Of a stretch of 64,000 bases of DNA, positions 15,993 through 38,782 are shown piece by piece. The position numbers were made by a program, and so were the translations under genes. Every line of letters begins with the position of its first letter. Positions within the stretch are counted from its first letter, which is position 1. Under the pieces are notes generated by a model. It had not been told where the DNA came from. It did no database searches and worked only from the letters and a program-made list of their open reading frames with translations. This stretch comes from Flavobacteriales bacterium (GTDB taxonomy: Bacteria; Bacteroidota; Bacteroidia; JANQJC01): NCBI GenBank assembly GCA_028281825.1, contig JANQJC010000009.1, forward strand, positions 8,138 to 72,137, written 5' to 3'.

Positions 15993-16898
15993 CTACTTGG
16001 GTCCCAATAGTTTGAATCTAAGCTCTTGTAATAAGTATTCTGCTTTATCTGTAAATCCTTTAGTCTCTAATTCAAGCGCAAGCTTGGTAAATATACTTGG
16101 ATTCAACCCCCTCTTAAAAGTCCTTTTTAAAAAACCATCATCAGAATAGGGCAGCGCACCAGCCTTTAAATGAGGTTTAAGGAGTTTTACCAACTTGTTA
16201 AACTCATTTCTATTATGCCAATAGTAGTCCTTATCAAATTGCCCCATTACCTTCATGCCAATATGCACGGTAAGGTGTAGGTTATCAAAAAGTTTGAAGC
16301 TGCTGGCAAAGGCATAAAGGTTATGGGCAAAAGCAGCTTCAATAAAAGGAACTCCAACACAAATATTGCCTAATTCAAATTTGGGATATAGATTTCTATG
16401 AAATACAAAACAATCAAAACCTGGGTGCGACTTACCTATTTCAGCCCAAATAAGGGGTAGCTCATCTGGCTTACTGTATATTTTTGGGATTCGCCTACGA
16501 TTTATCATAAACGCATCATGGCCTTTATCAATAATTGAAGCTACTGCCGCATAAAAATTGGGTAAAACAGTGATGTCAACGTTGGTGTATATTAAATATT
16601 CAGCATCACTATTCTCATAAACTGTGCTGAGAATATCCTTGAGTAATGGCAATTTTCTCTCTTTTGAAAAAGAAGCAATATCTAAAACTGAATGCTTAAG
16701 GTTGGTTGTTTTGGTAAAGTACTCAGGTATAATGTCAAGGTCTTCTTCGTACTGGGTAGTGAAAAGCTCAACACTTGTATTTTTTGCTAACTCTTTAGCA
16801 ATCCTCATACTTTCGAAGGTGATGGGTTGTGCGACAAACAAGTCTGAAGACTCCTTAACCTTTACCGGGTTAACAATATGTGCTATTGAAACTGCCAC
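15993..16898 (-). CDS. Putative GT-A fold glycosyltransferase / conserved hypothetical protein
   Basis: YLIYTNVDI (DxD-like), HPGFDCFVF; located in glycan locus. Confidence 0.55.
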   Translation of the reverse strand: MAVSIAHIVNPVKVKESSDLFVAQPITFESMRIAKELAKNTSVELFTTQYEEDLDIIPEYFTKTTNLKHSVLDIASFSKERKLPLLKDILSTVYENSDAEYLIYTNVDITVLPNFYAAVASIIDKGHDAFMINRRRIPKIYSKPDELPLIWAEIGKSHPGFDCFVFHRNLYPKFELGNICVGVPFIEAAFAHNLYAFASSFKLFDNLHLTVHIGMKVMGQFDKDYYWHNRNEFNKLVKLLKPHLKAGALPYSDDGFLKRTFKRGLNPSIFTKLALELETKGFTDKAEYLLQELRFKLLGPK

Positions 16899-16907
16899 TT
16901 TACTAAT

Positions 16908-17843
16908 TTAGTCGAACCAATTGAGATAAGACCAAAGTATTTGCCATTTCGCATTTCGATACTTGACCCAAAAGCCCTCATTTTTAAGTATTTTCTTGGT
17001 GTCTATCTTGAAACCATATTTTTCTAAAACAGCTATATAGTCGTGCAACTGAGCTTTTAATATAGGGTCTTCATCACGCAAAATAGCCGCAATGGTGCAA
17101 TCCGCATAATGAACAAAAACCAATGGATATTTTCCCTCAATCAATATTTTTCCATCTACATTCTCCCGTTTGACCTCCTTTATGTTCCAATATGCTACGT
17201 TACAACCCATGTGTGAAACTACCTTGGTTTTGGGTTCAATTACAGGCATCATGTCCAAGTATTTTTGGTCATCAAACATACCCTGAATGTAGCTTTTGGT
17301 ACATTTATAGATACATGCGTTAGCCCACCAATCCAGGGCAGCTTCAGCACCTTTAGAGACTCCAATAAATCCCGCATTATAGATTCCATCTCTAAAATTG
17401 GTCTCAAACCACAAAGGTTCCTTACTTGGGTTCGACGGTCTCCAGTGAGGAGTTAGTAAGATATGGTTGGTGCTTAGGTCATTCCACAAAAAATCAAAAG
17501 AGTCACTGAAGTAGATGTCGTTATCCACATATATGGCCTTTTCATACCCTCCTTCATTCAAAAGGTAGTTTAGAAAAATAGGTTTAAATGTCCATCTTAG
17601 TTTATCGGGATGTTTTCTATACTTGGCAGTTGCTTCCTTAGCAAATATTGAATTCAACTCGTCCAATGCGCGATACTTTACATTTAGAAAAGAAGTATCT
17701 AAATTTGATAACTCGGTAGCATCACTATCTACAACTAAGACTTCAAGTTCTGAGTCTTTATCAAACTTTAAAATTGAATCAAAAAGTGCATATACTTTCG
17801 GTAAATAACTCTTGGTAGATATGGTACAAATGGCGCGCTTCAT
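16908..17843 (-). CDS. Glycosyltransferase (GT8-like nucleotide-diphospho-sugar transferase)
   Basis: CTISTKSYL, TFKP, YVDNDIYF (DxD), GIYNAGF, DDQKYLD. Confidence 0.75.
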   Translation of the reverse strand: MKRAICTISTKSYLPKVYALFDSILKFDKDSELEVLVVDSDATELSNLDTSFLNVKYRALDELNSIFAKEATAKYRKHPDKLRWTFKPIFLNYLLNEGGYEKAIYVDNDIYFSDSFDFLWNDLSTNHILLTPHWRPSNPSKEPLWFETNFRDGIYNAGFIGVSKGAEAALDWWANACIYKCTKSYIQGMFDDQKYLDMMPVIEPKTKVVSHMGCNVAYWNIKEVKRENVDGKILIEGKYPLVFVHYADCTIAAILRDEDPILKAQLHDYIAVLEKYGFKIDTKKILKNEGFWVKYRNAKWQILWSYLNWFD

Positions 17844-17890
17844 TGATATTAAAAGAAGGTGCTAAAATTAGGAAATTAAAAGTTGGTAAC

Positions 17891-18946
17891 TTATTGAGCC
17901 AATTCCTGCATTATCAATTCTCTACTAAAAAGATAATACTTATAATGGCCTAAATTGTTTAGATGTGCATCAGGATAATCATTAAACCAATTTTTTGTTG
18001 TTTGTGGTAATTCCAAATATGGCTTTAAGGTAGGTTCATCAAAAATTGCTGAATACTTGCTTCTATACTCTTCCACATCCATATCAGCCTCCTTTATCTC
18101 AGGTATTACAACGATTTTGAGTAGGGTATTATGGTTTTTACAAGTGGTCACAATTTGCTTTAAGTAGCCAATGGTTATTTCAGGTTTTTTAATTAATTGT
18201 TCATATTCGAGTTTTTCCTTTAACCTGAATTTTAAAGAATAAAGTCTGCTCAATAAGCTGCTTTTGGAAGTAATGGATTCAAGAATTCCAATAGGTTCTT
18301 TGAGGTAAAACTTTCTGGCTACTATATAATTATAAGCTTCTTGAGCAGTTTTAAAGTCATTGCCATCAATGTTGGTAAGAATGGCTCCTGCATTGGTGTA
18401 AAAATAAAATGGTTTATTTGGCTTAGGTTCCCTATCTCGTTTCATTAGGTCGTTTCCCATAAAGAAATAAACCAACACTTGTTTTGGTTGCAATTTGGGG
18501 ATATAAGTTTCTGCAAGCAATGAATATTGTGGTGGGTCGGCTGCAGGAATGCCTAGATTAATAACCTGGAATGTTGAATCATTCCCCAATCTGTCGGCAA
18601 AGCAACTATCAATAGGCTCTGCTGTCATCCCCCAAACAAAACTATCACCAATGAGCATCGTTCCACCCTTTACTGATGATGAATCAAGTTCAGAAGTTCT
18701 AAAACCGTCAGTATTAATGCGCTCTGGTTGATATCTATAATAATCCTGATTTGCTACTAAAATTCCCTTATCGTTCACGACAAAATCATTGTATATAATG
18801 AGACTATCAACAGGCTCAAAATTAATCCAGTTTGGACTTATATCTCCAGGTTGATATCCAATAAACCTAAGGGTTGCTTCAATGATACCCATTAAGACCA
18901 GTAGTATGGCCAATTGTATCAATAGTATTTTGAGAAGTTTCTTCAA
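17891..18946 (-). CDS. Membrane-anchored SGNH/GDSL protein (putative O-acyltransferase/esterase)
   Basis: N-terminal TM; GDSFVWG, NLGIPA, GND, DAHLN. Confidence 0.82.
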   Translation of the reverse strand: MKKLLKILLIQLAILLVLMGIIEATLRFIGYQPGDISPNWINFEPVDSLIIYNDFVVNDKGILVANQDYYRYQPERINTDGFRTSELDSSSVKGGTMLIGDSFVWGMTAEPIDSCFADRLGNDSTFQVINLGIPAADPPQYSLLAETYIPKLQPKQVLVYFFMGNDLMKRDREPKPNKPFYFYTNAGAILTNIDGNDFKTAQEAYNYIVARKFYLKEPIGILESITSKSSLLSRLYSLKFRLKEKLEYEQLIKKPEITIGYLKQIVTTCKNHNTLLKIVVIPEIKEADMDVEEYRSKYSAIFDEPTLKPYLELPQTTKNWFNDYPDAHLNNLGHYKYYLFSRELIMQELAQ

Positions 18947-20003
18947 CAGTGTCTAATTGAAGGAGCTCAGGATATTTATTATTAATTTCTTCAAAAATAC
19001 ATTTTGCCATGATATGATAACCTTTCCCATTAAAATGTCCATCAATTGGCCATGCATATGAGTCGATATTATCTGGATTTAGATATTTACTCATTGGCTC
19101 GTGAAGTACTAAATGAGGCGTGTTGTTTGGTTCAAGGTAAGGAACAACTTTTCTTATATCATCTTGAGTATTGAAGTCATAGCGATGCTCATCTGGAAAC
19201 GCATGTAGTGCAGCTACAAAATCAATATTTCGTGCTTTGGATAGGCTGTCAAAACGAACGATGCATTGAGCAATCTTTTCGATAGCAACCTCTGTTTCCT
19301 TGTTTTTTTGACCTGGAGAAAGCAAAGCATCATCATAGCCAAATGAATGCATAATAGCCCTGCAAACATGGCTGTACTTATAAGGGATAAGCAATAAAGG
19401 TGCTTTTTTAAAAGCTGTTGTTCCATCGTTGAGAAACCGTTCAAAGCCACCACACAACATTACGTCATTAATATCAGAAGAATTAATAATGAGCAACACT
19501 ATATCTATATCAAATTCCTTTAATATGTCTTTAAAAAGTTGGTAGCAGAAAAATACATCACTACCAGCTATACCGGCGTTCCAAACTTCGTATTGGGTTT
19601 TGGGGTTAACATTTAATAAGTTTGATAGCTGTGCGGATATAACGCTATCATTAGTTGTTCCGAAACCTTCTGTAAAAGAATCCCCTATTGTTAAAATCCT
19701 AAGGGAATTAGCCTTTTTTTTCTTGTGAAATTCGGTACCCCTAAATCCCATAGAATTTGCAATAAATTCATACTTAAACTCTTTAAAGTCTCTTGTTACA
19801 ACTTGGCCTGGATTCCATCTATGATAATGTGTAGGATGAGTTTTTCCATAGTATGAATAGAAATACCCGTAAGCGTTCTCGGAATAGGTTAGATAAGTTC
19901 CTTTAAATCTCAAGTATATCTCGTAGGCTAAAACTGGTAAGAATGGAATAAGTATTAAAGCTAATGAGAAGAAATAATACCTAAACTTTTCTTTCAAGAC
20001 CAT
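18879..20003 (-). CDS. Membrane-anchored SGNH/GDSL protein
   Basis: N-terminal TM; NSMGFR, GDSFTEG, NAGIAG, DGHFN. Confidence 0.85.
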   Translation of the reverse strand: MVLKEKFRYYFFSLALILIPFLPVLAYEIYLRFKGTYLTYSENAYGYFYSYYGKTHPTHYHRWNPGQVVTRDFKEFKYEFIANSMGFRGTEFHKKKKANSLRILTIGDSFTEGFGTTNDSVISAQLSNLLNVNPKTQYEVWNAGIAGSDVFFCYQLFKDILKEFDIDIVLLIINSSDINDVMLCGGFERFLNDGTTAFKKAPLLLIPYKYSHVCRAIMHSFGYDDALLSPGQKNKETEVAIEKIAQCIVRFDSLSKARNIDFVAALHAFPDEHRYDFNTQDDIRKVVPYLEPNNTPHLVLHEPMSKYLNPDNIDSYAWPIDGHFNGKGYHIMAKCIFEEINNKYPELLQLDTVEETSQNTIDTIGHTTGLNGYH

Positions 20004-20020
20004 CAGCGATTATAAAGTTT

Positions 20021-21457
20021 TTAATCTTTAATGCTGTAAAAGTTCTTTGCTTTTTCTTTAAGCTCAGACATGTCTTGGGTTTCTATCGAAATCAGGAACT
20101 CTTCAATGGCCATATCATTGCTTAAATCTACTCTTGAGTATATATCTCCAGATTTGAACTCCCCAGGCATTTCACTATCTAGCAATGTTAATTTCTCAAG
20201 CAGCAATTTAGTTCTTGCTAAATCGAACTTTTCCAAAAAGTATTCCTCCTTGAGCTTATTCTTAATCAAACCTTTAAAGTCATGAAAGGAGTTTATGCTA
20301 ACTAAACTCTCATTGATGGTTATCCAATTTTCAATTTGATTGATAATATCTTTAAAATGCCTTTTGTTTTTATTATGGACGTTGCTTTCTTCAGGAAGAC
20401 TAGGTAAGATAGGTCTTAAATAATCTAGAATTTCCTTTAGCTCACTTGGTTTTAAGGTTCTAATTGCTAAATTCAATGGGTAAAACACCGTATGAAAATA
20501 AACCTGTATATCCCTTTCATTACAAAATGATATCATGTCAGGTATTTCCTTCCAGTTATTTCTCATGGCACAAGCAGAAATACCAATAAAGGTGTTCTTC
20601 TCACGACAGTAATTGATATACCACTTAACGTTTTCCATCACCCTTTCAAATTTGGCATTCACCCTTATACTTTCATAGGTTTCTTTTTGGAGAGAGTCTA
20701 ATGAAATATTGATGTGGAAATTAGTCTTATTAAGAATGCTTTTTACGCGATTGTTAAGTATAGTAGCGTTCGTCTGAACTTGAATCCTGACGTTTGGATT
20801 AATCTCCATAATTAACTCCCAAATCTTATAGTAAGTTTCTATAAGAAAAGGTTCTCCACCATAAAATTTTACATCTTCCAAGTAAGGAATAAACTCTTTT
20901 AATTGTTCGATGAATGTATTGTCATAAGGACTTACTAGCGGTTCTCTTTTTTCACGATTTGCCCTTATTAATGAAGAAAAATCACCATTGCACATAGTAC
21001 ACTCAAGGTTGCATAAATTCTCCAATTCAAATTCCATAACCGATGGATATCCGTTAGGGTTTTGTCTATGCAAGTCATATTGTTTGGATTTTACAGCATC
21101 AAAGTTTTCAGCGACCAAGTGAGCGAGGCAACCTTTGCAACCGTATGAAAAGTCATAGTTCGCTAAGGCATCTCGTAATTTTTTTGTGTTTTCGCCAAAC
21201 CAGATTTCCTTAATTGATTCTTCTGGATATGTTCCTAAAATGAATTGTCTATTGTAGCAGCATACCGCCAATCTTCCATGATGACCAAAATAAATACTCC
21301 TATATGGAGCATAACATGCACTGGAATTATTAAATTGTTTTCTCCGACTGTTATACTCTATTGTGAGTTCCTCGGTAATCCCATCACTTGCTTTCGATAG
21401 ATTTGGGATTTTTTTTTCAGAGAAAAAGTTGCTTAGAGTTCTTAAAAATTTGTTCAT
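20021..21457 (-). CDS. Radical SAM protein with N-terminal SPASM/twitch domain (paralogue 2)
   Basis: CNLECTMC and GGEPF; N-terminal CYAP...VCC...GCKGC. Confidence 0.88.
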   Translation of the reverse strand: MNKFLRTLSNFFSEKKIPNLSKASDGITEELTIEYNSRRKQFNNSSACYAPYRSIYFGHHGRLAVCCYNRQFILGTYPEESIKEIWFGENTKKLRDALANYDFSYGCKGCLAHLVAENFDAVKSKQYDLHRQNPNGYPSVMEFELENLCNLECTMCNGDFSSLIRANREKREPLVSPYDNTFIEQLKEFIPYLEDVKFYGGEPFLIETYYKIWELIMEINPNVRIQVQTNATILNNRVKSILNKTNFHINISLDSLQKETYESIRVNAKFERVMENVKWYINYCREKNTFIGISACAMRNNWKEIPDMISFCNERDIQVYFHTVFYPLNLAIRTLKPSELKEILDYLRPILPSLPEESNVHNKNKRHFKDIINQIENWITINESLVSINSFHDFKGLIKNKLKEEYFLEKFDLARTKLLLEKLTLLDSEMPGEFKSGDIYSRVDLSNDMAIEEFLISIETQDMSELKEKAKNFYSIKD

Positions 21458-21497: not shown

Positions 21498-22895
21498 TTA
21501 TAGGTTTTCGAGATCTTTTTTCTCGAGAGAAATAATATAATCCTCAACTAAAAAATCGTTGCTAAGGTCAACCTTTGATATATGACCAGTATAACTATAA
21601 TTGTCTGGAAGTCGTTCATGAATAAAGCCCATTTTCTTAATAATGGAGTCAGCTCTCTCGGAAGAAAATTTCCGAAGAAAATAAGGTTCACTTAGCTTGT
21701 TTTCTATAAATGACTTAATAGCCTCAAATGAATTCAAATTAGCCTTGGTTTCCTTTATCCTCGCCCAATCATTAATTTGGTTTATGACATCGCCTAAATG
21801 TTTTTTGTTCTTTTTTTCTAAACTGCTTATCTCTGGAAGGTCTGAAATGATTTCATTGTAAGTTTTTCTGATGAGATTTAAGTTCTCAAGTTCTAAATCT
21901 CTTATTGATAGTTCAAGAGGGTAAAAGACAGTGTGGAAATAAACCTGAACACTTTTCTCATTGCAGAATTTGACCATTTCGGGTAATTCTTCCCAGTTAT
22001 TCCTCATTGCGCATGCTGAAATACCTATAAAAGTTTCTTTTTCATGACAATAATCTATGAACCATTTTATATTTTCTATAACCCTTTCAAATTTTCCATT
22101 AATTCGAATGCTTTCATATGTTTCTTTATTAAGGGAGTCCAGTGAAATATTGATATGGAAATTGGTTTTATTGAGAATGTTCTTAACTCGATTATTGAGG
22201 ATGGTAGCATTGGTTTGAACCGAAATTCTGACATTGGGATTAACTTCCATAATTAACTCCCAAATCTTGTAATAGATCTCGATTAAGAACGGTTCACCAC
22301 CGTAAAACTTTACTTCCTCAAGATGTGGGATAAACTCTTTTAATTGTTCAATAAATGCAGCGTCATAAGGAATGTCAAGTGGTTCTCTTTTTTCACGATT
22401 AGCCCTTATCAGTGAAGAAAAATCACCATTGCACATAATGCACTCCAAGTTGCATAAGTTCTCCAATTCAAATTCCATCACTGATGGATACTTGTTTCTA
22501 TTGAGCTTTTGTAAGTCATACTGCTGGGCTTTTGTAGCATCAAAATTGCTAGCGGCCAACTGCATTAAACATCCATCACAACCATTTGAGAAGTCATATT
22601 TTGTGAGAGCATCTCGTAATTTGTTAGCATTTTCTCCAAACCAAATATCTTTGATTGACTGTTCTGGATAAGTGCCTAAAGTATATTGCCGGGTATAGCA
22701 GCAAACGGATAACCTTCCATGATGTCCAAAGTAGATGCTCTTAAAAGGTGCATAGCAAGCCACTTTTTGCGGACCTTTTGGACGACTATTATTATACTCT
22801 TTAACTAACTCTGGGGTGATTCCGCCGCTGGCTTGAGACAGGTCGGGAACTATCTCTTTCCTAAATAGATTGCTTACCTTGTCCAAAAACTCCAT
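21498..22895 (-). CDS. Radical SAM protein with N-terminal SPASM/twitch domain (paralogue 1)
   Basis: CNLECIMC and GGEPF; N-terminal CYAP...VCC...GCDGC; collinear with its neighbour. Confidence 0.88.
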   Translation of the reverse strand: MEFLDKVSNLFRKEIVPDLSQASGGITPELVKEYNNSRPKGPQKVACYAPFKSIYFGHHGRLSVCCYTRQYTLGTYPEQSIKDIWFGENANKLRDALTKYDFSNGCDGCLMQLAASNFDATKAQQYDLQKLNRNKYPSVMEFELENLCNLECIMCNGDFSSLIRANREKREPLDIPYDAAFIEQLKEFIPHLEEVKFYGGEPFLIEIYYKIWELIMEVNPNVRISVQTNATILNNRVKNILNKTNFHINISLDSLNKETYESIRINGKFERVIENIKWFIDYCHEKETFIGISACAMRNNWEELPEMVKFCNEKSVQVYFHTVFYPLELSIRDLELENLNLIRKTYNEIISDLPEISSLEKKNKKHLGDVINQINDWARIKETKANLNSFEAIKSFIENKLSEPYFLRKFSSERADSIIKKMGFIHERLPDNYSYTGHISKVDLSNDFLVEDYIISLEKKDLENL

Positions 22896-22951: not shown

Positions 22952-24733
22952 TTAAACCCACCTTTGCCACCAATTTTCCATCACGGCTATTTTCCATAAA
23001 CGCCAGTGGGCCTTTTCATTAATAAGCTTGTTTATATACTCCTTGTTTAAAACTTGTTCTGACAGAAGTTTACCTGGTAGAATAATGTTCTTATACCACT
23101 CGATATCCATATAATAACTGTCAGGTCCTACAAATCCTTGCTTTTTTCTTTCTAATATCTTCTTGGGAAGCTTGTTTTTTATGTTCTCATGAAGAAGGAA
23201 CTTGGTCACATTAGGTTTGAAATAGACGCTTTCTTTAAAAGTAAAGACTTTTTCAAACAATTCATGATCAAGAAAGGGTACTCTGACTTCAAGTGAATGA
23301 GCCATACTAGCCCTGTCTATCTTGGTAAGAACCAACTCTCCCATAAAGCATTTGATGTCCATTTTTTGAATGGACTTTAATGGGCTAAGACTTCCATTGT
23401 AATGTTGTCTATAAAACCAGTCAGTATCAGAGTTAATTTCTGACCTTAAATCAGGATTTAAGGCACCAGATAACTCGTTTAGGTTAAACCTGCCCATAGC
23501 CATATACTCGGCATATTCATCAACCGCCGAATTTCGCCGGTTACAGAATAGATTTTTTAACTTGCCTGGCAAACTTGAAGGGTTCCATTGAGCATAGTAT
23601 GTTTTTTGCCACTCATAGCCTCCAAATAATTCATCCGCACCTTCACCACTCATCACTGCTTTCACCTCGCTTGCTGCTAATCCGCTTACAATGTAAGTTG
23701 GGATAATAGAGATATCCGCAATTGGTTCGTCATAAATGGTGCTTAACTTACCAAGTACATCCAAGCTTTCACTACCAACAATTTTCGAAAAATGCTCAGT
23801 TTTTAATTGCTCTGAAACTATTTCTGCAAACTGATGTTCACTATTATCCCAATTTTCAAAACCTATTGAAAAGGTTTTTAGGTTTTGCTTCTGTTGCGAC
23901 AAGTAATAAACAATTGCACTGCTATCATAGCCCCCACTCAAAAATGAACCAATTTCGACATCACTTCTGGAATGTATATTGATCGAATCAGCCAGCATCC
24001 CACCAATTTCCTCTGCTAGTTGATTTGAGTTAGTACTTAAATCAGTACTATTAAGTGTCCAATATTCAGATATATTGGTGCTTTTAGATTGCAAATCAAC
24101 TTTAAGGTAATGAGCGGGGGGAAGTTTATAGGTGTCTTTCCAAATGGTTTTGGGTGATGGGATATACCTGTAAACGAAATAGTCTGCAAATGAGCTAAAG
24201 TCAATTTCTTTGGCTGGAATCCCTGATTTGAGAATAGCTTTTAATTCACTTGCAAAAATGAAATGACTCCCTTTCTTAAAGTAGTAAAGAGGCTTAATGC
24301 CAAATCGGTCTCTGACTAAATATAACTTGTGATTAGCTTCATCCAGCATAGCAAAGGCGAACATCCCTTTTATCTTTTGTAACAAGTCATCAACCCCCCA
24401 TTGTTCAAATCCATGCAGTAGAACTTCCGTATCTGAAGTGGATTTGAAAGTGTGCCCTAATGCAACCAACTCAGTTCTTAACTCCGAATAGTTGTATATT
24501 TCCCCATTCAAGATTACCCATAATGTTCCATTCTCATTGCACATGGGTTGTCTACCAGATTCTGATAAGTCGAGAAATGAAAGCCTTCTATGACCCAGTA
24601 TTACATTGGTTTTTTCTGAATAATAATTGGCAGCATCATCAGGTCCGCGGTGGGCAATAGTATCACGCATCTTAGTAAAAAGATGTTCATCGATATTATC
24701 TTGATAACTAACCCAACCTGCTATGCCACACAT
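22952..24733 (-). CDS. asnB: Asparagine synthase (glutamine-hydrolysing) family amidotransferase
   Basis: MCGIAG Ntn start at 24733; HRGPD, NGEIYN, RDRFGIKPL, LSGGYDSS, SGEGADELFGGY, DRASMAHSLEVRVPFLD. Confidence 0.93.
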   Translation of the reverse strand: MCGIAGWVSYQDNIDEHLFTKMRDTIAHRGPDDAANYYSEKTNVILGHRRLSFLDLSESGRQPMCNENGTLWVILNGEIYNYSELRTELVALGHTFKSTSDTEVLLHGFEQWGVDDLLQKIKGMFAFAMLDEANHKLYLVRDRFGIKPLYYFKKGSHFIFASELKAILKSGIPAKEIDFSSFADYFVYRYIPSPKTIWKDTYKLPPAHYLKVDLQSKSTNISEYWTLNSTDLSTNSNQLAEEIGGMLADSINIHSRSDVEIGSFLSGGYDSSAIVYYLSQQKQNLKTFSIGFENWDNSEHQFAEIVSEQLKTEHFSKIVGSESLDVLGKLSTIYDEPIADISIIPTYIVSGLAASEVKAVMSGEGADELFGGYEWQKTYYAQWNPSSLPGKLKNLFCNRRNSAVDEYAEYMAMGRFNLNELSGALNPDLRSEINSDTDWFYRQHYNGSLSPLKSIQKMDIKCFMGELVLTKIDRASMAHSLEVRVPFLDHELFEKVFTFKESVYFKPNVTKFLLHENIKNKLPKKILERKKQGFVGPDSYYMDIEWYKNIILPGKLLSEQVLNKEYINKLINEKAHWRLWKIAVMENWWQRWV

Positions 24734-24798: not shown

Positions 24799-24890
24799 CA
24801 AATATAAGCACACAATACATATTGACAATTAATGATATTAGATGCCCGTGTTATGGTATTGTTTCATTGTTCATGAAATTGGTACTTTTG
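24799..24890. promoter_or_regulatory. Divergent Bacteroidota -7 promoter elements (asnB arm and wzm arm)
   Basis: TATATTTG on the minus strand at 24799-24806; TACTTTTG on the plus strand at 24883-24890. Both match TAnnTTTG. Confidence 0.55.
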
Positions 24891-30442: not shown

Positions 30443-30443
30443 G

Positions 30444-31220: not shown

Positions 31221-32140
31221 TGGAGCCTGTTAAGGTGAGTGTGGTTGTAGTAACTTACAATCACGAAAAATATATATCTGATGCTATCAAAAGCATATTG
31301 GCCCAAAAGGTCAATTTTAAGATAGAAGTCATTATTGCTGATGATGGCTCCACAGATAACACTCCCACTATAGTTGATCAGTTTGCCAAGAACTATCCTG
31401 ATACAATTGTCCCATTACGCTCTGCCGAAAATCGAGGAGTTTTTCAGAATGCATTCAGTGCCAGGTTTAAGGTGCGGGGGCAGTACATTGCCTTGCTAGA
31501 TGGTGACGATTACTGGGATTATGAGTTGAAGCTACAAAAGCAGGTTGACTTCCTTGATGGGAACAGTGAGTATAATGGTGTCTTCCATGATGCCAAGATT
31601 ACACACATAGATAGCTCTGATAAAGTTCTCTTTGCTCAAAAGCATCTCTATTCTCAAAATTATCTCTTTAAAGAAGAAATTTACCCTTCAGACTTTATCC
31701 AAAGGGAAATTATCTTACCCTCATCATCAGCAATGATTAGATCTTCTGCATTGGATGGAGTGGATATCAGTATCATTAAGAATAACTATTCCTTTTTTTG
31801 GAAAGTTTGTTGTTTTATCATCAGGCAATCTAAGTTTTATTTCATCAATGAGCCTTGGAGTGTATATAGAAACCATCAACAGGGTATATCTAAGCGTAAT
31901 AATTACGAATTCCATACTTCGCATATTAAGTTTTTGGAAACTCTCTTGGAAGAGGAATTTTACAAAAACTATAAGTATAATGTGTGTCAGGCTATTGCTA
32001 ATGAATACAAAGTGCTACTTGATTCAAGCCATGAAGAAGTAAGGAAGAACATAAGGACTATTTTTAAGCAGTATGTCCGTAACGAGGTGCGCAGAATATG
32101 GCATTACAGGAAAAAGGTAATAGGTAAAGGAGAACAGTGA
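31220..32140 (+). CDS. Glycosyltransferase family 2
   Basis: TYNHEKYI..AI.SIL.Q, DDGSTD, LDGDDYW...KLQKQ. Confidence 0.92.
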   Translation: MEPVKVSVVVVTYNHEKYISDAIKSILAQKVNFKIEVIIADDGSTDNTPTIVDQFAKNYPDTIVPLRSAENRGVFQNAFSARFKVRGQYIALLDGDDYWDYELKLQKQVDFLDGNSEYNGVFHDAKITHIDSSDKVLFAQKHLYSQNYLFKEEIYPSDFIQREIILPSSSAMIRSSALDGVDISIIKNNYSFFWKVCCFIIRQSKFYFINEPWSVYRNHQQGISKRNNYEFHTSHIKFLETLLEEEFYKNYKYNVCQAIANEYKVLLDSSHEEVRKNIRTIFKQYVRNEVRRIWHYRKKVIGKGEQ

Positions 32141-32917
32141 ATGAAGCCAGCCAAGAGTATCCCCCGCATATCACCTATACATAAGACTAAATTTTTCAAA
32201 GAATATGTTTCTCTGGCTAAGCCTGTAATTATTGAAGGTTTGGTAGATGAGTGGCCCGCTTTTGGCAAATGGAGTATGCAGTATTTTGCAGAAAGGTATG
32301 CTAAGGTGGCTCCTGTTACTGTTAAGGTCAAGGATGGGAAACACGATTTTGACTTGGAGCATGGCACTGGCATATTCAACAAGCCTATGGAAGAGACGCT
32401 CAAAAAAATAATGGCTGGAAATGTTAGCGAGGGATATGCCATAGGCACTACTGATGAAGTCTTTCCGCAGGAGCTAAGAGACGATTACCCCACCCCAGGG
32501 TATTGTGCTGATGGTAAGTATTTAAGAGCGCGTATTTTTATTGGGGCAAAAGGCACTATTACCGAAACCCATCAAGACTTGTTCGAGAACCTTTATACTG
32601 TAGTCAAAGGTTCAAAGCGTATTTACCTTTTTGAGCCAAAGGATAGTATATACCCTAACTCCCGTTTCTCAAAGCTGCCCAACTTTGCGCGGACTGACCC
32701 CGAGAATCCCGATTATGAAAACTATCCAAAAATGCGGAATGCCCAACCATATGTTGTAGATTTGAAGGCTGGTGAGACCCTCTTTTTACCAAGCCTGTGG
32801 TGGCATTACGTTAAGAACCAAGAGGAAAGTATAGCTGTGAGTTATTGGTGGGCATATGGATGGAAACTACCTTTGGTGTGGGCCGCAGTGCAGTATAAAA
32901 AGTTCAGGGGTATCTAG
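32141..32917 (+). CDS. JmjC / cupin-8 Fe(II)/2OG hydroxylase (JMJD5/FIH-like)
   Basis: KPVII.G....WPA..KWS, T..HQD..ENL....G.K...LF, L.AGE.LFLP..WWH.V. Confidence 0.88.
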   Translation: MKPAKSIPRISPIHKTKFFKEYVSLAKPVIIEGLVDEWPAFGKWSMQYFAERYAKVAPVTVKVKDGKHDFDLEHGTGIFNKPMEETLKKIMAGNVSEGYAIGTTDEVFPQELRDDYPTPGYCADGKYLRARIFIGAKGTITETHQDLFENLYTVVKGSKRIYLFEPKDSIYPNSRFSKLPNFARTDPENPDYENYPKMRNAQPYVVDLKAGETLFLPSLWWHYVKNQEESIAVSYWWAYGWKLPLVWAAVQYKKFRGI

Positions 32918-32952: not shown

Positions 32953-34506
32953 ATGGGTAAGAAGCTATTATATAGAATCTTATTGACTGCAATTGTTGTA
33001 GTCACTTCCGTATTTCATAATGACTCATTGAGATATGGCCTTTCTACCGATGGACCTGATGTGTGGGAGTACCAGACGGTAGCCGTCAATTTTTCAGAAT
33101 ATGGGGAGTTTCCCACAATGGGCTTTATTGGAGACGAGCCTTGCTACCAAACTAATATACTTGAAGGCAATACCCTCTCCAACTACATGAAATGTAGGTT
33201 TTCAACCCCTGGACCACTAGTCTATTTGGCGAAACCCCCTGCTTATCCCTTTATACTTGGTTTGGTTTACAAGATATTTGGAGCCAACCTCAAGTATGCC
33301 TACAACCTTAATTTATTATTTTTCATTGGAATCGTCTTTGTGTTGATAGGGATGGGGCAAACCATCAATAATGACTATGGGGTGCTACTTGGAGTATTAG
33401 CAGGGCTTCTATTTGGTACGCAAGTCTATCATAGCTTGTCGGATGTCCTTCCGGCTATCATGATGACTTTCTTTTTTGCCTGCATTGCATGGGTGGGGGT
33501 GTTGGTTGTAAAAACTCCAACACATAAGAAATTCTCCTTGATGGGTATTATGATTGGACTAGGCTTATTGACCAAAGGAGATATCAGTTTTATAGCCATA
33601 CTAATCCCTATTTGCTTAGCTTTCTTCTTATTCCGTATCGATAAGTTGATGACTAAAATGGTGATAATGTTCTTATCCGTTGCCCTCGTGTTACTGCCTT
33701 GGGTTATCTATGCTAACTATTTGAGGGTAAATACACAAACAGAAAGAGTGGAGTGGAAGCAGAAACTGTTAGAATCAGAGCAAGTGTGTGAATTGGATAC
33801 TTCCAAAAGAGAGGAGTGGGAGAATCGAGGCAGTATTATTGAAAACAAAGAGTATCATTCACTAGCAACTCACTTTTATTCAAGATACGCGATTGGAGAT
33901 AAAATGGTGATAATTTCCAATCAAGTTAATAAGGACGAATGGCTTTCAGTGCACAATGAATTTAGTACTGATGGGCATTGGCACCCAGAGTGGAGAGTAA
34001 GGGAAAGTGCCATTTACAATAATAAATATCAAGACAAACCTGTTTTGATGAAGGTCGTCTCATTCTATGCGGATAATCCAAGTCTCTTTTTCAAGATAGC
34101 TATGGCCAAGTTGGTAAGGGCGACAAGTAGTACCAACACCTTTTTGCTGCTTGCTGCATTTTTGTTTGGATGTTTGATGTGGATGTTGGGAATAGGAGTA
34201 GATAAGACGTTTTTAAATGTTATTTTTTTGTTGATTTCAGGGTTAGGATATTTAATATTACACCATCTCAATTTTCAACTTTTAATCGTTTATACCATTA
34301 TATTCTTTTTATCAGGATTATTATTGTTTAGAAGAAACATGATAAAAGACATTCCATTTATATTTCCATTGTTCATTCTAAATACCTTTTTAATCACATT
34401 TATTTTTTATGGAGACGCCAGGTTTGTATACGTGATTGAGCCAATTGCTATCTTTTCAGCCCTTTATTTCCTATCTTCGTTAGTTAAAAGTTTTTTTGAA
34501 CGCTAG
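32953..34506 (+). CDS. GT-C fold membrane glycosyltransferase (ArnT/PMT, GT83/GT39-like)
   Basis: About 12 TM segments; D..EY...A.N, KPPAYP, LTKG, LLPW...N, C-terminal ARF...IEP. Confidence 0.7.
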   Translation: MGKKLLYRILLTAIVVVTSVFHNDSLRYGLSTDGPDVWEYQTVAVNFSEYGEFPTMGFIGDEPCYQTNILEGNTLSNYMKCRFSTPGPLVYLAKPPAYPFILGLVYKIFGANLKYAYNLNLLFFIGIVFVLIGMGQTINNDYGVLLGVLAGLLFGTQVYHSLSDVLPAIMMTFFFACIAWVGVLVVKTPTHKKFSLMGIMIGLGLLTKGDISFIAILIPICLAFFLFRIDKLMTKMVIMFLSVALVLLPWVIYANYLRVNTQTERVEWKQKLLESEQVCELDTSKREEWENRGSIIENKEYHSLATHFYSRYAIGDKMVIISNQVNKDEWLSVHNEFSTDGHWHPEWRVRESAIYNNKYQDKPVLMKVVSFYADNPSLFFKIAMAKLVRATSSTNTFLLLAAFLFGCLMWMLGIGVDKTFLNVIFLLISGLGYLILHHLNFQLLIVYTIIFFLSGLLLFRRNMIKDIPFIFPLFILNTFLITFIFYGDARFVYVIEPIAIFSALYFLSSLVKSFFER

Positions 34507-34533
34507 GCATACGTTGTAAAGGAGGAGAAAAGC

Positions 34534-35544
34534 ATGGATACTTACAGGTTATTGCAGATGGGTGCTGCTTATGCGCAGAGTTTATCTTCGTTTCACTTAA
34601 ATGGGAAGCCACGCCCGTTTTCTGCTTCTTTTGCGATTACCAATAAGTGTAATTTGAGGTGCACCTATTGTGATTTACCCAATATCAAAGCACCAGAACT
34701 CAATCTGGAGCAAATGGATGTCCTTTTCAGGAAATTGAAGAAAATGGGCGTCTTGAGGCTCGGTATCTTTGGTGGTGAACCCATGGTGAGGAAAGATTTG
34801 GGGGAGATTATCAAATTAGCTAAGAAACGAGGCTTTTTTGTCAGTCTTAACTCCAATATGCTGTTGTATGACAGGTATAAAGATGTGCTTGACCCAGTTG
34901 ATTACTTTTTTGTGAGTATAGATGGCACTGCTGAGAAACATGCAATAAATAGAGGTAAACAGAGCTACGAAAAGATTCTCGAAGCAACTCGGGATTTAGT
35001 AAAACGCAAGAAGAAAGTAACAGCAATATCTGTTGTAACTGACCCTGATAAGTCTATGGCAGATTATATGGTTGACCTAGCTGTGCGTGAGAAGATAGAT
35101 GTGCATTTTCAGCCTGAGTGCTATGATTCAATGTGTGCAGGGAGGACTGCGCCTGACGACCTAGAGCATGAAGCAACAAGGGATTTTTGGTTATACCTGC
35201 TGGAAAAGAAGAAACAGGGAGCTCCCATCACCAGTTCTACTGGTTATTTGAAATTTATCAGTCAATGGCACAATTACAAACAGACTTCGGTATACGATGC
35301 TGAACATCGTTGCATGGCGGGGAGCGGATTTATTTCAATAGATCCTTCTGGTATTGCTTATCCTTGTATTTTTACACAGGGTAATTTTGAAGGGGTTGAC
35401 TTGATGAAGTATAATTGGGAAGATAAATTTGATGGAAAGACCCCTTGCACTACCTGCATTGTAGGTCCTTTGTTGGAGTATAACTTATTGTTTAAGAAAC
35501 CAATAAGGTCTACTATTGAAGCGTTGGGTAAGGCAGTTTATTAA
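34534..35544 (+). CDS. Radical SAM protein with C-terminal twitch/SPASM domain
   Basis: CNLRCTYC, GGEP, SIDG; C-terminal CMAG...IDPSG...PC...CTTC. Confidence 0.88.
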   Translation: MDTYRLLQMGAAYAQSLSSFHLNGKPRPFSASFAITNKCNLRCTYCDLPNIKAPELNLEQMDVLFRKLKKMGVLRLGIFGGEPMVRKDLGEIIKLAKKRGFFVSLNSNMLLYDRYKDVLDPVDYFFVSIDGTAEKHAINRGKQSYEKILEATRDLVKRKKKVTAISVVTDPDKSMADYMVDLAVREKIDVHFQPECYDSMCAGRTAPDDLEHEATRDFWLYLLEKKKQGAPITSSTGYLKFISQWHNYKQTSVYDAEHRCMAGSGFISIDPSGIAYPCIFTQGNFEGVDLMKYNWEDKFDGKTPCTTCIVGPLLEYNLLFKKPIRSTIEALGKAVY

Positions 35545-35560
35545 AAAAGTATAAGAGCCA

Positions 35561-36409
35561 ATGGCTTCTATGGACATGAATAAAGAAGTGGTTACAAAAG
35601 AGGATTTATTAAAGTACTATGATGAGTGCTGGCTAGAGAGATTTGAGAAGGGCCATAATCCTAAATCACTCGCTATGCACCTTGGTTATTTTACTGAGGA
35701 AAGCATGGATAACGATGCCGCCAAGGTAAATACCAATAAGTTCTTGGCCGAGCATTTAGGTATTAAAAATGATACCAAAGCCAGTTTGGCTGACTTTGGT
35801 TGCGGAATTGGTGGCACTTGCATTTACCTGGCTAAAAACTATCCTAACCTAAGGATAAGTGGTATCAATATTTCTTCAACACAAGTTGATTTTGCCAACA
35901 GGATTAAAGAACAAAACAATATTAATGGCCAAATTGAGTATTTGATTTCAGATTACTCAAAAACGAATCTTGCCGACTCAAGTTTAGATTATGTAATTGC
36001 AGTAGAGAGCATATGCCATGCGGTAGATAAGCAAAAGGTATATTCAGAGGCTTATCGAGTGCTAAAACCAGGGGGGCGCTTCGTATTCATGGACTATTTT
36101 GAAGAGCGAGAAGCTAACACCCCTGAAGAACTAGAATGGTTAAGTGACTTTAGAAAAGGCTGGGCCATTATTGAATATATAAGAAATCACGGTGAATTAC
36201 TTAGCCAGGTAGATTTTAGCCATATCACCCAAACATCGCTTCTGGATAAAGTAGGACCAGGTATTTTAAATTCATATACCAAGGCAGTTGCCAAACTTGG
36301 GGACAATAGCTCTGAGACATTTAATAATCATTTAAAGGCTTGTGTTGCCCTTAAAGAACTTACAGACAGGGGCATTATAGATTATAAGATAATTACCGCT
36401 CAAAAGTAA
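35561..36409 (+). CDS. SAM-dependent methyltransferase (tocopherol/sterol C-methyltransferase-like)
   Basis: MHLGYF, DFGCGIGG, GINIS..Q, ESICH, RVLKPGG. Confidence 0.85.
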   Translation: MASMDMNKEVVTKEDLLKYYDECWLERFEKGHNPKSLAMHLGYFTEESMDNDAAKVNTNKFLAEHLGIKNDTKASLADFGCGIGGTCIYLAKNYPNLRISGINISSTQVDFANRIKEQNNINGQIEYLISDYSKTNLADSSLDYVIAVESICHAVDKQKVYSEAYRVLKPGGRFVFMDYFEEREANTPEELEWLSDFRKGWAIIEYIRNHGELLSQVDFSHITQTSLLDKVGPGILNSYTKAVAKLGDNSSETFNNHLKACVALKELTDRGIIDYKIITAQK

Positions 36410-37254
36410 TTGGCATTCGCGGCCAGTTTTACCAGTATCATTGCTATTCCTGCAATTAGAAAAATGGCGCGAGAAATCTTTTGGAATTTCTTTATTTCCT
36501 TGTCTCTCATTATTAGAGACATAATAAGCAAGGTGGCCGTGGGCACAACAAAAGCATAAAACGCGATAGTCTCAATAATGTTGAAAAAGAAGAGTGTATT
36601 CCAGTAAAACAGCGTAAAAGCTATCAGCACGGTTCTTAAAAGCAACACCTTATCTTTTCCAATTCTGACTGCCGTAGTTTTGCTGCCAGTACTTTTGTCA
36701 TCATCGTAGTCCATTATTTCATGATGAAAGTGGCCCGCAGATAAAAGTAAAGCAAAGTTGATAGAAATAGTCAATGATTCTATACCATATTCTTGATAGC
36801 TGCAGTATCCAGTATGAAAATGTAATACACCTGCTAGCAGGTGTATTAAAGTACCTCCTAAAAAAGTTGATTTTAGGCGCAAGGGCTGCAGATAGTAGAA
36901 GCCCCATAAAAGTAATGAGGATAGGCTAAGTATCAGTACAGTGACATTGACAGCATAAGATAACACACCGAACAAAACACAAAAGAGAATGAATAACTGG
37001 ATGTAGGTCTGTTTGGAAATATCACCCACAATTTTCAGTCTTTTAGAGTGTTTGTCCTTTTCATAATCAGCAAAGGAATTCATGGCAAAAACGGCCAACA
37101 CATAGAAGAAAACAAAAAAGAAAACAGTGATATTTTTCAACCAGTTGGTCCAGCCTGAAACATCAGTGAATAAAATGCCTATGAAAGAAAAGCCTGTCAT
37201 CAATAAGATTTCTTTCAAACGCAATGACTTTACTAGTGAAAGTGTTTTGTCCAA
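36400..37254 (-). CDS. UbiA family prenyltransferase
   Basis: Multi-TM; NSFADYEKD and EIMDYDDD...G.KTTAVRIG Asp-rich motifs; PLRLK. Confidence 0.85.
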   Translation of the reverse strand: MDKTLSLVKSLRLKEILLMTGFSFIGILFTDVSGWTNWLKNITVFFFVFFYVLAVFAMNSFADYEKDKHSKRLKIVGDISKQTYIQLFILFCVLFGVLSYAVNVTVLILSLSSLLLWGFYYLQPLRLKSTFLGGTLIHLLAGVLHFHTGYCSYQEYGIESLTISINFALLLSAGHFHHEIMDYDDDKSTGSKTTAVRIGKDKVLLLRTVLIAFTLFYWNTLFFFNIIETIAFYAFVVPTATLLIMSLIMRDKEIKKFQKISRAIFLIAGIAMILVKLAANANYF

Positions 37255-37294
37255 CGTGGTTCTGTTTCTAGTTTTGCGCAGCTACTATGACCTA

Positions 37295-38782
37295 TTACTT
37301 CATCATTAACTCTTTCAGCGTCTTTCGGTCCAAATTTTCAAGGTAGGCCATCACAACAATTATAATACCTGGGGATAATCTATTTTTAAAAAAGTTATCG
37401 AAGTTGTCACCAAGTTGCTCATGAATATAATCCAATTGAGCCTCAATTTTATCTATCCTTTGTTGCTTTTGTGATGGGGAAATATGTTTATCACATTGAA
37501 TTATTGATACTATTATTTCCCTGGTTAGGCTTTCCATGTCACCTGTATCAGGGTTTTTAAGCAATTTGTCCACTTTGGTTTTGCAGGATAGGTAGAGTTG
37601 ATTATTGTATTCCAGAATGCTGTCTATATCAACAACAGTCGTTGTAGGTAATTTACCTTTTGGAATCCATTCAACGGCTATATCTTTTATGTTCGTTCCT
37701 TTAATAACCAATTCGTCTATCGTGCTTGATAACCTTTCATTGACAAAATAGTGAAGCCTTACCCCTGAATGGTTGCCCACAAAAGTTACTTTTTCAATAT
37801 AGCTTTTAGTGTTTTTTATGTAGGTGCCTATCTCTTCAGAGCCAATGGTAAATATTGAATCGTTGATAGATACTTTCCCTTTTCCCTTTATGTTGTGTAA
37901 AACCAACGGAACTTTAATGGAGCACTCACTACTATCAGCAACCTTTATTTCAGCAAAAGTATATTCAGGGAAATCAGCTCCCTTATAGGGCCAGAAGTAT
38001 TCGGGAAATCTTATCGGAAAAGTCATTGACGATTTTTTTGGCAAGTAGAACCTTATATCGATAGGATTCATTCTGTTATTATATCCTTCATTAATAAAGT
38101 TATCCTCGGTGGTAGCATACATATTCTTTAACGCTTTAGAACTGGACAGGGCTTTTGGGTGAAAAGCAACATTTGATGCATATACCTTTCGGTTCATAAG
38201 GGTGGTATCCTTGGCTATTTCTTCAACACTTGCTACTTTATTATCCTTATTTAGGTAGTAAACTTGATATGAAGGGTCATACATATGCCATTTTCCTTTC
38301 ACGTATACTTCGGGTACCACGTGACCCTCTATGGTCCATATGCGTGATTCAAACATGAGGTCTTTCCATATGAAGGAAAGTAGTGTAGCCATATCATCAC
38401 ACAAACCATTACCGAGTGAGTTTACCATCAGTTCAGGGTAATGCATCCAACCTTCTTCAGAGAAAGGCCTGCAATAATTAATCTTATCAATCACATACAT
38501 CCATGCAAGTCTTTCCAGTGGCTCATTTGGGTGGTCAATTTGCATGTTGTAGATATCATTCAACATATATCCCTTGGCTTTGAAGAAGTGATCTGATTGA
38601 ACTTTGAATACGCTTAGGGTATCACCCTCGTTTTTAATGCTTATGATACAACCTGATGAGTCAGCGCATATATTTTGAAACACGCGCCTTGCTATAATAG
38701 TGTCTCTGATAATACTGGCATTGCTACTCACAAAGCAAGTCAATAGGCACCCCAATATTAGTATGTATCTCTTAATCATCAA
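37295..38782 (-). CDS. Secreted transglutaminase-like domain protein
   Basis: Signal peptide; G.CDD.A...GHVVPEV....W...DP Cys-His-Asp triad. Confidence 0.7.
   Translation of the reverse strand: MMIKRYILILGCLLTCFVSSNASIIRDTIIARRVFQNICADSSGCIISIKNEGDTLSVFKVQSDHFFKAKGYMLNDIYNMQIDHPNEPLERLAWMYVIDKINYCRPFSEEGWMHYPELMVNSLGNGLCDDMATLLSFIWKDLMFESRIWTIEGHVVPEVYVKGKWHMYDPSYQVYYLNKDNKVASVEEIAKDTTLMNRKVYASNVAFHPKALSSSKALKNMYATTEDNFINEGYNNRMNPIDIRFYLPKKSSMTFPIRFPEYFWPYKGADFPEYTFAEIKVADSSECSIKVPLVLHNIKGKGKVSINDSIFTIGSEEIGTYIKNTKSYIEKVTFVGNHSGVRLHYFVNERLSSTIDELVIKGTNIKDIAVEWIPKGKLPTTTVVDIDSILEYNNQLYLSCKTKVDKLLKNPDTGDMESLTREIIVSIIQCDKHISPSQKQQRIDKIEAQLDYIHEQLGDNFDNFFKNRLSPGIIIVVMAYLENLDRKTLKELMMK

Follow-up and report, generated by a model that had tools for sequence, protein, structure and literature searches.

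In a 64,000-nucleotide stretch of contig JANQJC010000009.1 from a Flavobacteriales bacterium (assembly GCA_028281825.1; hereafter the window) we analyzed a locus of 22 intact open reading frames (ORFs; g01-g22) at positions 15993-38782, which is real and conserved and in all likelihood encodes a previously uncharacterized variant of ABC-dependent glycoconjugate synthesis. Its predicted products make it very likely that the locus specifies a surface glycoconjugate exported by a Wzm/Wzt transporter. We further propose, with a rough probability of 0.5, that this glycoconjugate is oxidatively tailored and carries a built-in isoprenoid made by a UbiA-family prenyltransferase. Bacterial glycans exported by ABC transporters are as a rule assembled on undecaprenyl carriers and bear small decorating groups. 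A locus family that ties such an exporter to a prenyltransferase, cyclase-like genes and swappable oxidases, present in about 7% of the sampled Bacteroidia genomes, points to an unrecognized envelope polymer or glycolipid. As an earlier note on this DNA had supposed, no description of the gene set was found in the literature searched, which comprised openly available main texts; the comparisons with published systems given below draw on portions of the cited articles.

Gene content and layout of the locus

The 22 genes fall into a left arm of 7 minus-strand genes, a right arm of 13 plus-strand genes and 2 further genes that converge on the right arm. Nine of the 21 gene-gene junctions overlap or lie 0-1 bp apart, and the spacing is at most 56 bp throughout with the sole exception of a 188-bp divergent region between the arms, so that the contiguous, tightly packed arrangement described in the earlier note is borne out by the ORF listing. 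Hidden Markov model (HMM) searches with the Pfam and NCBIfam libraries back 18 of the 22 gene labels, the other four ORFs having no match in either. Pfam confirms the families GT8, GT2, PMT_2 (a GT-C-type enzyme), ABC2_membrane, ABC_tran with Wzt_C, Asn_synthase, UbiA and a methyltransferase, as well as PhyH, Asp_Arg_Hydrox, TauD, Cupin_8/JmjC, three Radical_SAM proteins, Hexapep with PglD_N, and two GDSL/SGNH proteins, the first of which scores below the cut-off. Most of the gene content listed in the earlier note thus holds, its HTTM protein (g11) and one of its glycosyltransferases (g01) being weakly backed. The catalytic motifs of the four oxygenases, g19, g14, g20, g21, g16 and AsnB are intact in the orthologues examined. 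The GC content is 37.2% for the locus versus 41.1% for the remainder of the window. Type IX secretion domains and named matches place the genome in Bacteroidota, and the 40 relatives considered for it were related at the class level only.

A conserved 14-gene cassette with a shuffled left arm

Genes g08-g21 form a cassette in the order wzm, wzt, a small gene, an HTTM-like gene, PhyH, AspH-like, NeuD, TauD, GT2, JmjC, GT-C, radical S-adenosylmethionine (SAM) enzyme, methyltransferase and an inverted ubiA. All 14 recur in identical order and on identical strands, at 50-74% identity, in two genomes of another Bacteroidia family (G132 and G231), where AsnB and a transglutaminase-like gene come right after the cassette. 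A third genome (G003) retains 11 of the 14, with wzm placed further upstream, the JmjC gene missing and the small/membrane pair diverged (profile match P 84%). Matches to the TauD-like g15 at E<=1e-20 occur in 5 of 401 genomes of the class, including this one, and one of the five is a distant copy; the close g15 orthologues lie in three other genomes, all of a single family (3 of the 8 genomes of f4). The median identity of the cassette to G132 (65%) equals that of 14 hand-picked flanking genes (65%), so that old inheritance and old transfer are not separable by this measure.

The left arm includes two radical SAM genes with an N-terminal twitch domain (hereafter N-twitch). Genes of this type are found in 26 of the 401 class genomes and in 0 of 14 controls, often as 2-8 paralogues, and in relatives they accompany SGNH, GT8, AsnB and transglutaminase-like genes in varying order; left-arm gene types recur beside the same core in many genomes. 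On sequence comparison the 23 kb is a fixed 14-gene cassette joined to a shuffled left arm drawn from the same gene pool, and not a single conserved unit.

The shuffling of the left arm relative to all relatives, together with its lower GC content (35.4%, versus 38.5% in the right arm), could be taken to mean that the genes of the region were inserted one by one and serve no common pathway, the more so as none of the three closest cassette loci (G132, G231 and G003) has the N-twitch pair and N-twitch genes abound in viral contigs. However, the order of 14 genes is shared across families, the junctions are coupled, and the left-arm types recur with the same core, so that this explanation is largely refuted by synteny and we regard it as very improbable. 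The same synteny speaks for a single Wzm/Wzt-centered glycoconjugate locus, as had been claimed from the window.

The wider locus family

Beyond the cassette, a marker GT8-fold glycosyltransferase, whose gene comes after AsnB in relatives, is present in 27 of the 401 sampled class genomes (~7%); in the present genome (G000) it lies at 62866-64071 of contig C75, alone among unrelated genes and outside the 23 kb. The stretches fetched from the 26 other genomes contain UbiA in 22, AsnB in 23, Wzm in 15, Wzt in 14, SGNH proteins in 16, N-twitch enzymes in 12, a TPR-bearing membrane protein in 17, PhyH in 11, cytochrome P450 in 5, a cyclase-like gene in 9, an epimerase in 15, DegT in 9, a UDP-sugar dehydrogenase in 4 and some oxidative or radical enzyme in 21, these being counts over partial stretches chosen around matches, with several contigs merged per genome, in genomes that are kin and not independent. 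The genes recur in the order wzm-wzt-(variable oxidases, methyl- or sulfotransferases)-ubiA-asnB-(epimerase)-glycosyltransferase-GT8-TPR membrane protein. Several related loci carry arrays of 6-9 PhyH-family paralogues (L048-L049 in G173, L093 in G003, L061-L062 in G236 and L056 in G211), several of them interleaved with wzm/wzt.

None of the 22 locus proteins is an epimerase, dehydratase or aminotransferase by Pfam, in agreement with the earlier note, which had concluded that the locus builds a simple backbone. That conclusion is unsupported because the relatives carry the epimerases, DegT aminotransferases and UDP-sugar dehydrogenases counted above and this genome has homologues of sugar-nucleotide genes on contigs C23, C127, C53 and C142; their lack in the window is therefore a local feature.

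Export machinery, glycosyltransferases and the acceptor

The permease gene wzm (g08, 24922-25734, plus strand; PF01061) overlaps wzt (g09, 25731-26897, plus strand), whose product combines an ATPase (PF00005) with a C-terminal carbohydrate-binding domain (PF14524, 37.9 bits against a cut-off of 30.4). In the PDB, g08 best matches the permease chain of WzmWzt from the 6m96/8dku series (E 1.4e-12), and g09 best matches 8dku, the O-antigen transporter of A. aeolicus, at E 2e-58 and with a match that extends into the C-terminal domain, which in A. aeolicus binds a 3-O-methylated cap (PMC9445017). Adjacent Wzm and Wzt proteins that group with the polysaccharide-export clade, together with the predicted carbohydrate-binding domain of Wzt, place the locus among ABC-dependent polysaccharide pathways as far as the transporter is concerned. 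With the A. aeolicus pathway it shares the adjacent wzm-wzt pair, the Wzt_C domain, soluble glycosyltransferases and a possible cap methyltransferase, whereas four Fe(II)/2-oxoglutarate (2OG) oxygenases of four families, three radical SAM enzymes and the UbiA, HTTM-like and transglutaminase-like proteins are found only here, judging from the parts of PMC9445017 that describe that pathway.

Among the predicted cytoplasmic glycosyltransferases, the GT2 enzyme g16 (31220-32140, plus strand; PF00535) and the GT8 enzyme g02 (16908-17843, minus strand; PF01501, 32.3 bits against a cut-off of 24.3) are confirmed by Pfam; g02 has homologues in 11 of the 26 related loci and no match in a phmmer search of the PDB. 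The third, g01 (15993-16898, minus strand), is a soluble GT-A-like protein of 301 aa from an unnamed family; it has no Pfam or NCBIfam match and its likeness comes from its Atlas neighbors only (nearest named clusters GT2/DUF707 at 0.93), and a homologue is present in 9 of the 26 related loci, often close to wzm. The fourth core enzyme is the one encoded on C75.

No priming phosphoglycosyltransferase or ligase was detected by Pfam among the 22 genes, and the acceptor may be lipid A-core, a free isoprenoid glycolipid or secreted proteins. A second wzm/wzt locus is present in the genome on the 5.4-kb contig C141, where the pair is followed by genes for a putative aminotransferase and a putative formyltransferase-like protein.

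The UbiA-family enzyme and the isoprenoid link

The UbiA-family prenyltransferase g21 (36400-37254, minus strand; PF01040) shares with seven homologues the motifs NxxxDxxxD and HxxxDxxxD, both Asp-rich diphosphate-binding motifs being kept, and N59, D63, D67, Y120, K128, H178, D182 and D186 are invariant in all 8 aligned sequences. Its 13 NCBIfam matches are all to prenyltransferase models and its sole PDB match is 4tq3. Four other UbiA-family genes score above the cut-off in this genome, so that g21, which is extra to them, looks pathway-specific. In two relatives UbiA is part of a fusion protein, its partner being a GT4 domain in G003 and a DxD-containing glycosyltransferase domain in G176. 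Each of the five loci of the UbiA clade of g21 has a g20-type methyltransferase adjoining ubiA; g20 itself (35561-36409, plus strand; PF08241) is a class I SAM methyltransferase whose nearest solved structures are phosphoethanolamine N-methyltransferases, MitM and sugar O-methyltransferases, and whose top NCBIfam match, a weak one, is geranyl diphosphate 2-C-methyltransferase.

In relatives, a family of 340-380 aa encoded near ubiA matches drimenol synthase in its class II cyclase domain (E 2.5e-5). A profile built from 6 sequences of this family (alignment A6) finds it in 10 related genomes, adjoining ubiA in 6 and fused to P450 in 2, and G231 shows the run wzm-wzt-cyclase-ubiA; a parallel search with PF13243 was discarded because it missed the positive control G219. 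From these sequence relationships a terpenoid product appears strongly indicated for the wider locus family and moderately so for the subtype with g21. The earlier suggestion that the product is possibly prenylated is plausible and better backed than stated, given the UbiA motifs, the UbiA-glycosyltransferase fusions and the cyclase-like neighbors.

Two further arrangements were noted in the relatives. At L179:3237-5390 (G219) and in a matching 706-aa ORF of L181 (G262) a cytochrome P450 is fused to the cyclase-like domain directly before ubiA. In L051 (G176) a single run holds two P450s, a sulfotransferase, a cyclase-like gene, the UbiA-glycosyltransferase fusion and, flanked by wzm and wzt, a gene of the geranylgeranyl-reductase family.

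The combination of UbiA, methyltransferase and oxygenases, and in relatives of a monodomain cyclase-like gene beside UbiA, P450 and methyltransferase, is reminiscent of merosterol-type (MstE) chemistry and of the drimenol synthase of A. spongiae (PMC12414744, PMC9401909). UbiA with both Asp-rich motifs is shared with the MstE-type clusters, but the monodomain class II cyclase was not found in this genome, and no candidate gene for supplying an aromatic acceptor was recognized in the locus. From the shared features the locus might be a small-molecule cluster for a prenylated, meroterpenoid-like glycoside that is oxidized, methylated, amidated and secreted through Wzm/Wzt. We hold this to be quite improbable, as the transporter belongs to the polysaccharide-exporting type and has a cap-binding domain, several glycosyltransferases, a GT-C enzyme and membrane-anchored SGNH proteins are encoded, and the locus family occupies conserved positions with sugar-nucleotide genes; the MstE and drimenol synthase systems, as described in the portions of PMC12414744 and PMC9401909 available, yield small molecules and lack glycan export machinery.

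A UbiA-superfamily membrane enzyme and a GT-C (here g18, PF13231) are likewise shared with the three-component pentofuranosylation system of Citrobacter youngae O1/O2 (PMC11127046). Unlike that system, as described in part of PMC11127046, the locus has no MATE/SMR flippase or epimerase among its 22 genes (Pfam, NCBIfam) and g21 matches models of enzymes that use prenyl diphosphates. Two of the three features of three-component pentofuranosylation are thus absent from the predicted proteins. A role of g21 as a DPPR synthase in such a system was rejected, its NCBIfam matches being prenyltransferases only, with no phosphoribosyltransferase, and its PDB match being 4tq3; a DPPR-synthase model and structure exist in the libraries searched.

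Oxygenases and the acyl-type substituent

The four 2OG oxygenases are the PhyH-family g12 (28242-29174, plus strand; PF05721; HxD...H in 3/3 orthologues), the AspH/OlsC/LpxO-like beta-hydroxylase g13 (29161-29826, plus strand; PF05118, motifs kept; 102 bits against the OlsC model, whose cut-off is 450), the TauD/trimethyllysine-hydroxylase-like g15 (30444-31220, plus strand; PF02668) and the JmjC/cupin-8 protein g17 (32141-32917, plus strand; PF13621; HxD...H in 2/2). They surround the GT2 gene g16 and the gene for the NeuD/PglD-like acyltransferase g14 (29837-30442, plus strand; PF17836 and PF00132; TIGR03570 134 versus 161). In two relatives (G070, L039, and G109, L042) the interval between NeuD and the g16-like GT2 is instead filled by ketoacyl synthase (KAS), FabZ-like and phosphopantetheinyl transferase-like (PPTase-like) genes, with a DegT gene in the same group, as identified by Pfam on the G070 copies. 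These acyl-type genes in the oxygenase slot suggest that some of the oxygenases may build an N-acyl substituent instead of acting on the prenyl part.

The KAS-type genes of these relatives, a candidate acyl R-group module, recall the R-group genes of F. psychrophilum, where wfpC-G, in a Bacteroidota glycan locus, are proposed to make the acyl R group of the O-polysaccharide (PMC6519341; also bioRxiv 10.64898/2026.09.14.751350) and the proposed role of a PglD homologue is to place an unusual acyl group on an amino sugar (PMC6519341). That pathway, going by the part of PMC6519341 that presents it, is Wzx/Wzy-dependent and employs acyl carrier protein (ACP) and KAS, whereas the 22-gene locus is without these and has oxygenases instead; no ACP or ketoacyl synthases were found by Pfam beside g14 or elsewhere among the 22 genes.

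The mixed-dioxygenase clusters of Iyer et al. 2010 (PMC2938197) also bring together JmjC, beta-hydroxylase and PhyH proteins with methyl- and acetyltransferases. They are linked to peptides or collagen-like proteins with no glycan context, the words 'polysaccharide' and 'glycosyltransferase' being absent from the main text of PMC2938197. Multi-dioxygenase clusters with beta-hydroxylase, PhyH, methyl-, acetyl- and sulfotransferases have been proposed for surface proteins (PMC2938197), and our locus could by analogy be a modification system for large type IX-secreted surface proteins, in which the glycan is exported and then linked to adhesin or S-layer proteins, with GT-C/TMTC-like or transglutaminase-like enzymes making the link, and in which protein residues may be hydroxylated by some of the oxygenases. 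A large TPR-bearing membrane protein in 17 of the 26 related loci (one with a weak TMTC_DUF1736 match), often followed by a protein of 1200-3300 aa, would fit this, as would the 1777-aa PKD/CHU_C protein that comes after the left arm. Proteins of the type IX-secreted kind are common in these genomes, which makes the adjacency weak evidence; moreover, the oxygenases have no hydrophobic leader and the TPR membrane gene lies outside the locus (homologues on C133 and C77). We consider such a system unlikely, though it concerns the acceptor and can coexist with the glycoconjugate proposed here.

Radical SAM enzymes

The N-twitch enzymes g05 (20021-21457, minus strand) and g06 (21498-22895, minus strand) are 65% identical. 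NF033640 is by far the best model for both, yet their scores of 160.3 and 167.1 bits fall below its curated cut-off of 170, and g06 has no match in a phmmer search of the PDB. The closest match of their N-terminal domain is the twitch domain at the C terminus of BtrN (E 8e-10), with weaker matches of the core to an unnamed radical SAM protein (8vpo), BlsE and MoaA; in g06, C47, C65, C106 and C109 and the CxxxCxxC motif are invariant in 15/15 sequences. BtrN dehydrogenates an aminocyclitol and has a Cys4 auxiliary cluster (PMC10337720). The four invariant cysteines of g05/g06 suggest a fully ligated auxiliary cluster like that of BtrN, and by this likeness the two enzymes may oxidize a sugar or cyclitol. 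While the twitch domain with four conserved cysteines and the CxxxCxxC core are shared, g05 and g06 differ from BtrN, as it is presented in part of PMC10337720, in the N-terminal position of the twitch domain, in being two paralogues and in a core that matches many families equally. The third enzyme, g19 (34534-35544, plus strand; PF04055), has a twitch-like C-terminal cluster of cysteines (260/278/305/308 in 3/3 orthologues).

In viral contigs (L099-L173) N-twitch relatives occur in at least 517 of 649 candidate stretches, with carbamoyltransferases (10 of 75 loci), other radical SAM genes and, rarely, the bacterial core as neighbors. A phage origin of the whole locus was rejected, since by tblastn the 75 viral loci have AsnB in 3, a g22 homologue in 1 and no Wzm, Wzt, UbiA or oxygenases. 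Contig L099 of the viral set (56% GC) resembles a bacterial piece of the UbiA-AsnB-GT8-Wzm/Wzt locus family, and in an Aenigmatarchaeota metagenome-assembled genome a glycosyltransferase-like gene adjoins ~14 radical SAM genes in tandem (L032:6082-21936).

Membrane-associated and remaining proteins

The membrane protein g11 (27270-28241, plus strand; predicted fold, pLDDT 85) is probably HTTM/GGCX-like. The top Foldseek match of its model is GGCX (prob 0.96, TMq 0.49, but E 0.7), and above prob 0.15 Foldseek lists nothing but four GGCX entries; in a wide VIA search a GGCX-like structure ranks 20 (Z 6.2, rmsd 4.7, 163 aligned), behind unrelated helical bundles. Its second Atlas match (0.89) has HTTM on 21% of members. 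PF05090 was found in 0 of 9 alignment members, which had no other Pfam match, and the profile compared with one HTTM protein gave E 0.31; K136 is invariant in the alignment. The small membrane-anchored g10 (26905-27273, plus strand) has no family match and adjoins g11 in G132 and G231 too, as would befit a partner protein. The locus family also places two orphan families, bacterial GGCX/HTTM-like proteins and the N-twitch radical SAM enzymes that are common in aquatic viruses too, in a concrete context for the first time.

Two predicted SGNH acyltransferases/esterases, g03 (17891-18946, minus strand; PF13472 at E 3.6e-5, below cut-off) and g04 (18879-20003, minus strand; PF00657 above cut-off), each have one N-terminal hydrophobic segment, and the GT-C enzyme g18 (32953-34506, plus strand; PF13231 above cut-off) has 9 hydrophobic segments. 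The AsnB-type glutamine amidotransferase g07 (22952-24733, minus strand; TIGR01536 above cut-off) has a homologue at >=40% identity in 23 of the 26 related loci; its start at 24733, which yields MCGI with an N-terminal Cys, is preferred over the 24820 of the ORF caller. The exported transglutaminase-like protein g22 (37295-38782, minus strand) has an N-terminal hydrophobic segment and a Cys128/His154/Asp169 triad that is invariant in 4/4 aligned homologues, and PF01841 matches 2 of 4 other homologues. When metagenomes were scanned with g22 by itself, 0 relatives were found in 65 candidate stretches, and a scan with the g22 alignment gave 1 weak locus in 143.

A proposed pathway and its weighing

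Based on these observations we propose that g21 would prenylate a small acceptor, with a prenyl diphosphate as the donor of the chain, and that g20, the neighbor of ubiA in all five clade loci, would methylate the product of g21 or cap the glycan. The four oxygenases and three radical SAM enzymes would hydroxylate or dehydrogenate the hydrophobic moiety and the N-acyl or sugar substituent, filling a variable slot that in relatives seems to be held by PhyH arrays or P450s. Sugars would be added by g01, g02, g16 and the GT8-fold enzyme of C75, g14 would acylate an amino sugar made elsewhere, and AsnB would amidate a carboxylate. Wzm/Wzt would recognize the modified chain end via its C-terminal domain and export the product, which the two SGNH proteins and the GT-C, transglutaminase-like and HTTM-like proteins might finish or attach outside the cytoplasm. 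The isoprenoid may be a substituent, or it may be the anchor or aglycone. A compact cassette of 14 genes is testable enzyme by enzyme.

More tentatively, and in our view with odds well below even, the locus could be one subtype of a Bacteroidota-wide pathway whose product, an envelope glycoconjugate of a new class, has a UbiA-made isoprenoid and not Und-PP (undecaprenyl diphosphate) or lipid A as the primer or permanent anchor of its glycan. The isoprenoid would be cyclized to a sterol-like meroterpenoid in the cyclase-bearing relatives. The glycan would owe its diversity to 2OG oxygenases, P450s and circularly permuted BtrN-like radical SAM enzymes that are interchangeable among loci, and it would be exported by an O-antigen-type ABC transporter.

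Several observations weigh against a built-in isoprenoid modified by these enzymes. The cyclase-like gene was not found with the A6 profile, which did match G231, in this genome (96% complete), nor in G132, G003, G070 and G109. The clade of g21 (5 rows, SH-aLRT 95 in a quick tree) is separate from the cyclase-linked UbiAs, at ~17% identity, so that the terpenoid evidence is carried over from cousins, and the cyclase assignment itself is one weak profile match to a family whose DxDD motif is degenerate in most rows. A fold search with the full model of g06 recovered generic radical SAM cores only (TMq <=0.36), viperin, SkfB, MoaA and BlsE being about equal. Finally, the genome encodes elsewhere 3 priming transferases (PF02397), 5 Wzy_C/ligase-like proteins (PF04932) and 1 WaaA (PF04413), with which ordinary assembly on Und-PP and ligation to lipopolysaccharide needs no UbiA.

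The product could accordingly be a conventional ABC-dependent O-polysaccharide made on Und-PP and ligated to lipid A-core, with an N-acyl or sugar substituent that is unusually oxidized and whose R group the oxygenases build, while UbiA and the methyltransferase make a side product or cofactor outside the glycan, such as a quinone for the GGCX-like protein. The Wzm/Wzt pair with its carbohydrate-binding domain, the resemblance of the g11 model to the vitamin-K-dependent carboxylase fold (with the weak E of 0.7) and the DegT-NeuD-FabZ/KAS/PPTase-like-GT2 grouping of G070 and G109, which is like wfpC-G of F. psychrophilum (PMC6519341), would all suit it. However, the UbiA-glycosyltransferase fusions and the fixed UbiA-AsnB-glycosyltransferase neighborhood argue that UbiA acts in the same pathway, and the genome has a second, more ordinary wzm/wzt locus on C141. 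The oxidase slot is moreover occupied by P450s in 5 of the 26 relatives, and P450s prefer hydrophobic substrates. We therefore judge a conventional O-polysaccharide to be a rather unlikely account of the whole gene set.

Promoter-like elements and neighboring genes

The Bacteroidota -7 consensus is TAnnTTTG. Two such elements point outward within the 188-bp gap, at 24799-24806 (minus strand, left arm) and 24883-24890 (plus strand, right arm), bearing out the divergent -7 elements read in the earlier note, and a third lies upstream of the converging pair at 38808-38815 (minus strand). In this genome the motif precedes 370 of the 1478 ORFs whose upstream region is free, as against 92 of 1478 coding controls, a four-fold enrichment, and a similar motif is present near the wzm start in 4 of the 7 relatives scored. 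Generic sigma-70 and terminator scans gave chance-level counts (64 vs 64.2 and 13 vs 14.3, respectively).

The locus is flanked by a 1777-aa PKD/CHU_C protein on one side and an FKBP gene on the other. The former (10516-15849, minus strand) carries a CHU_C type IX secretion signal in addition to 19 PKD repeats and lies 143 bp past the left arm on the same strand, and very large proteins likewise terminate many related loci. Elsewhere in the window, a VCA0040-like undecaprenyl-phosphate translocase is encoded ~10 kb from the locus (48929-49906, minus strand), and the gene at 49938-51110 (minus strand) encodes a ComA (phosphosulfolactate synthase) domain fused to a rhodanese domain.

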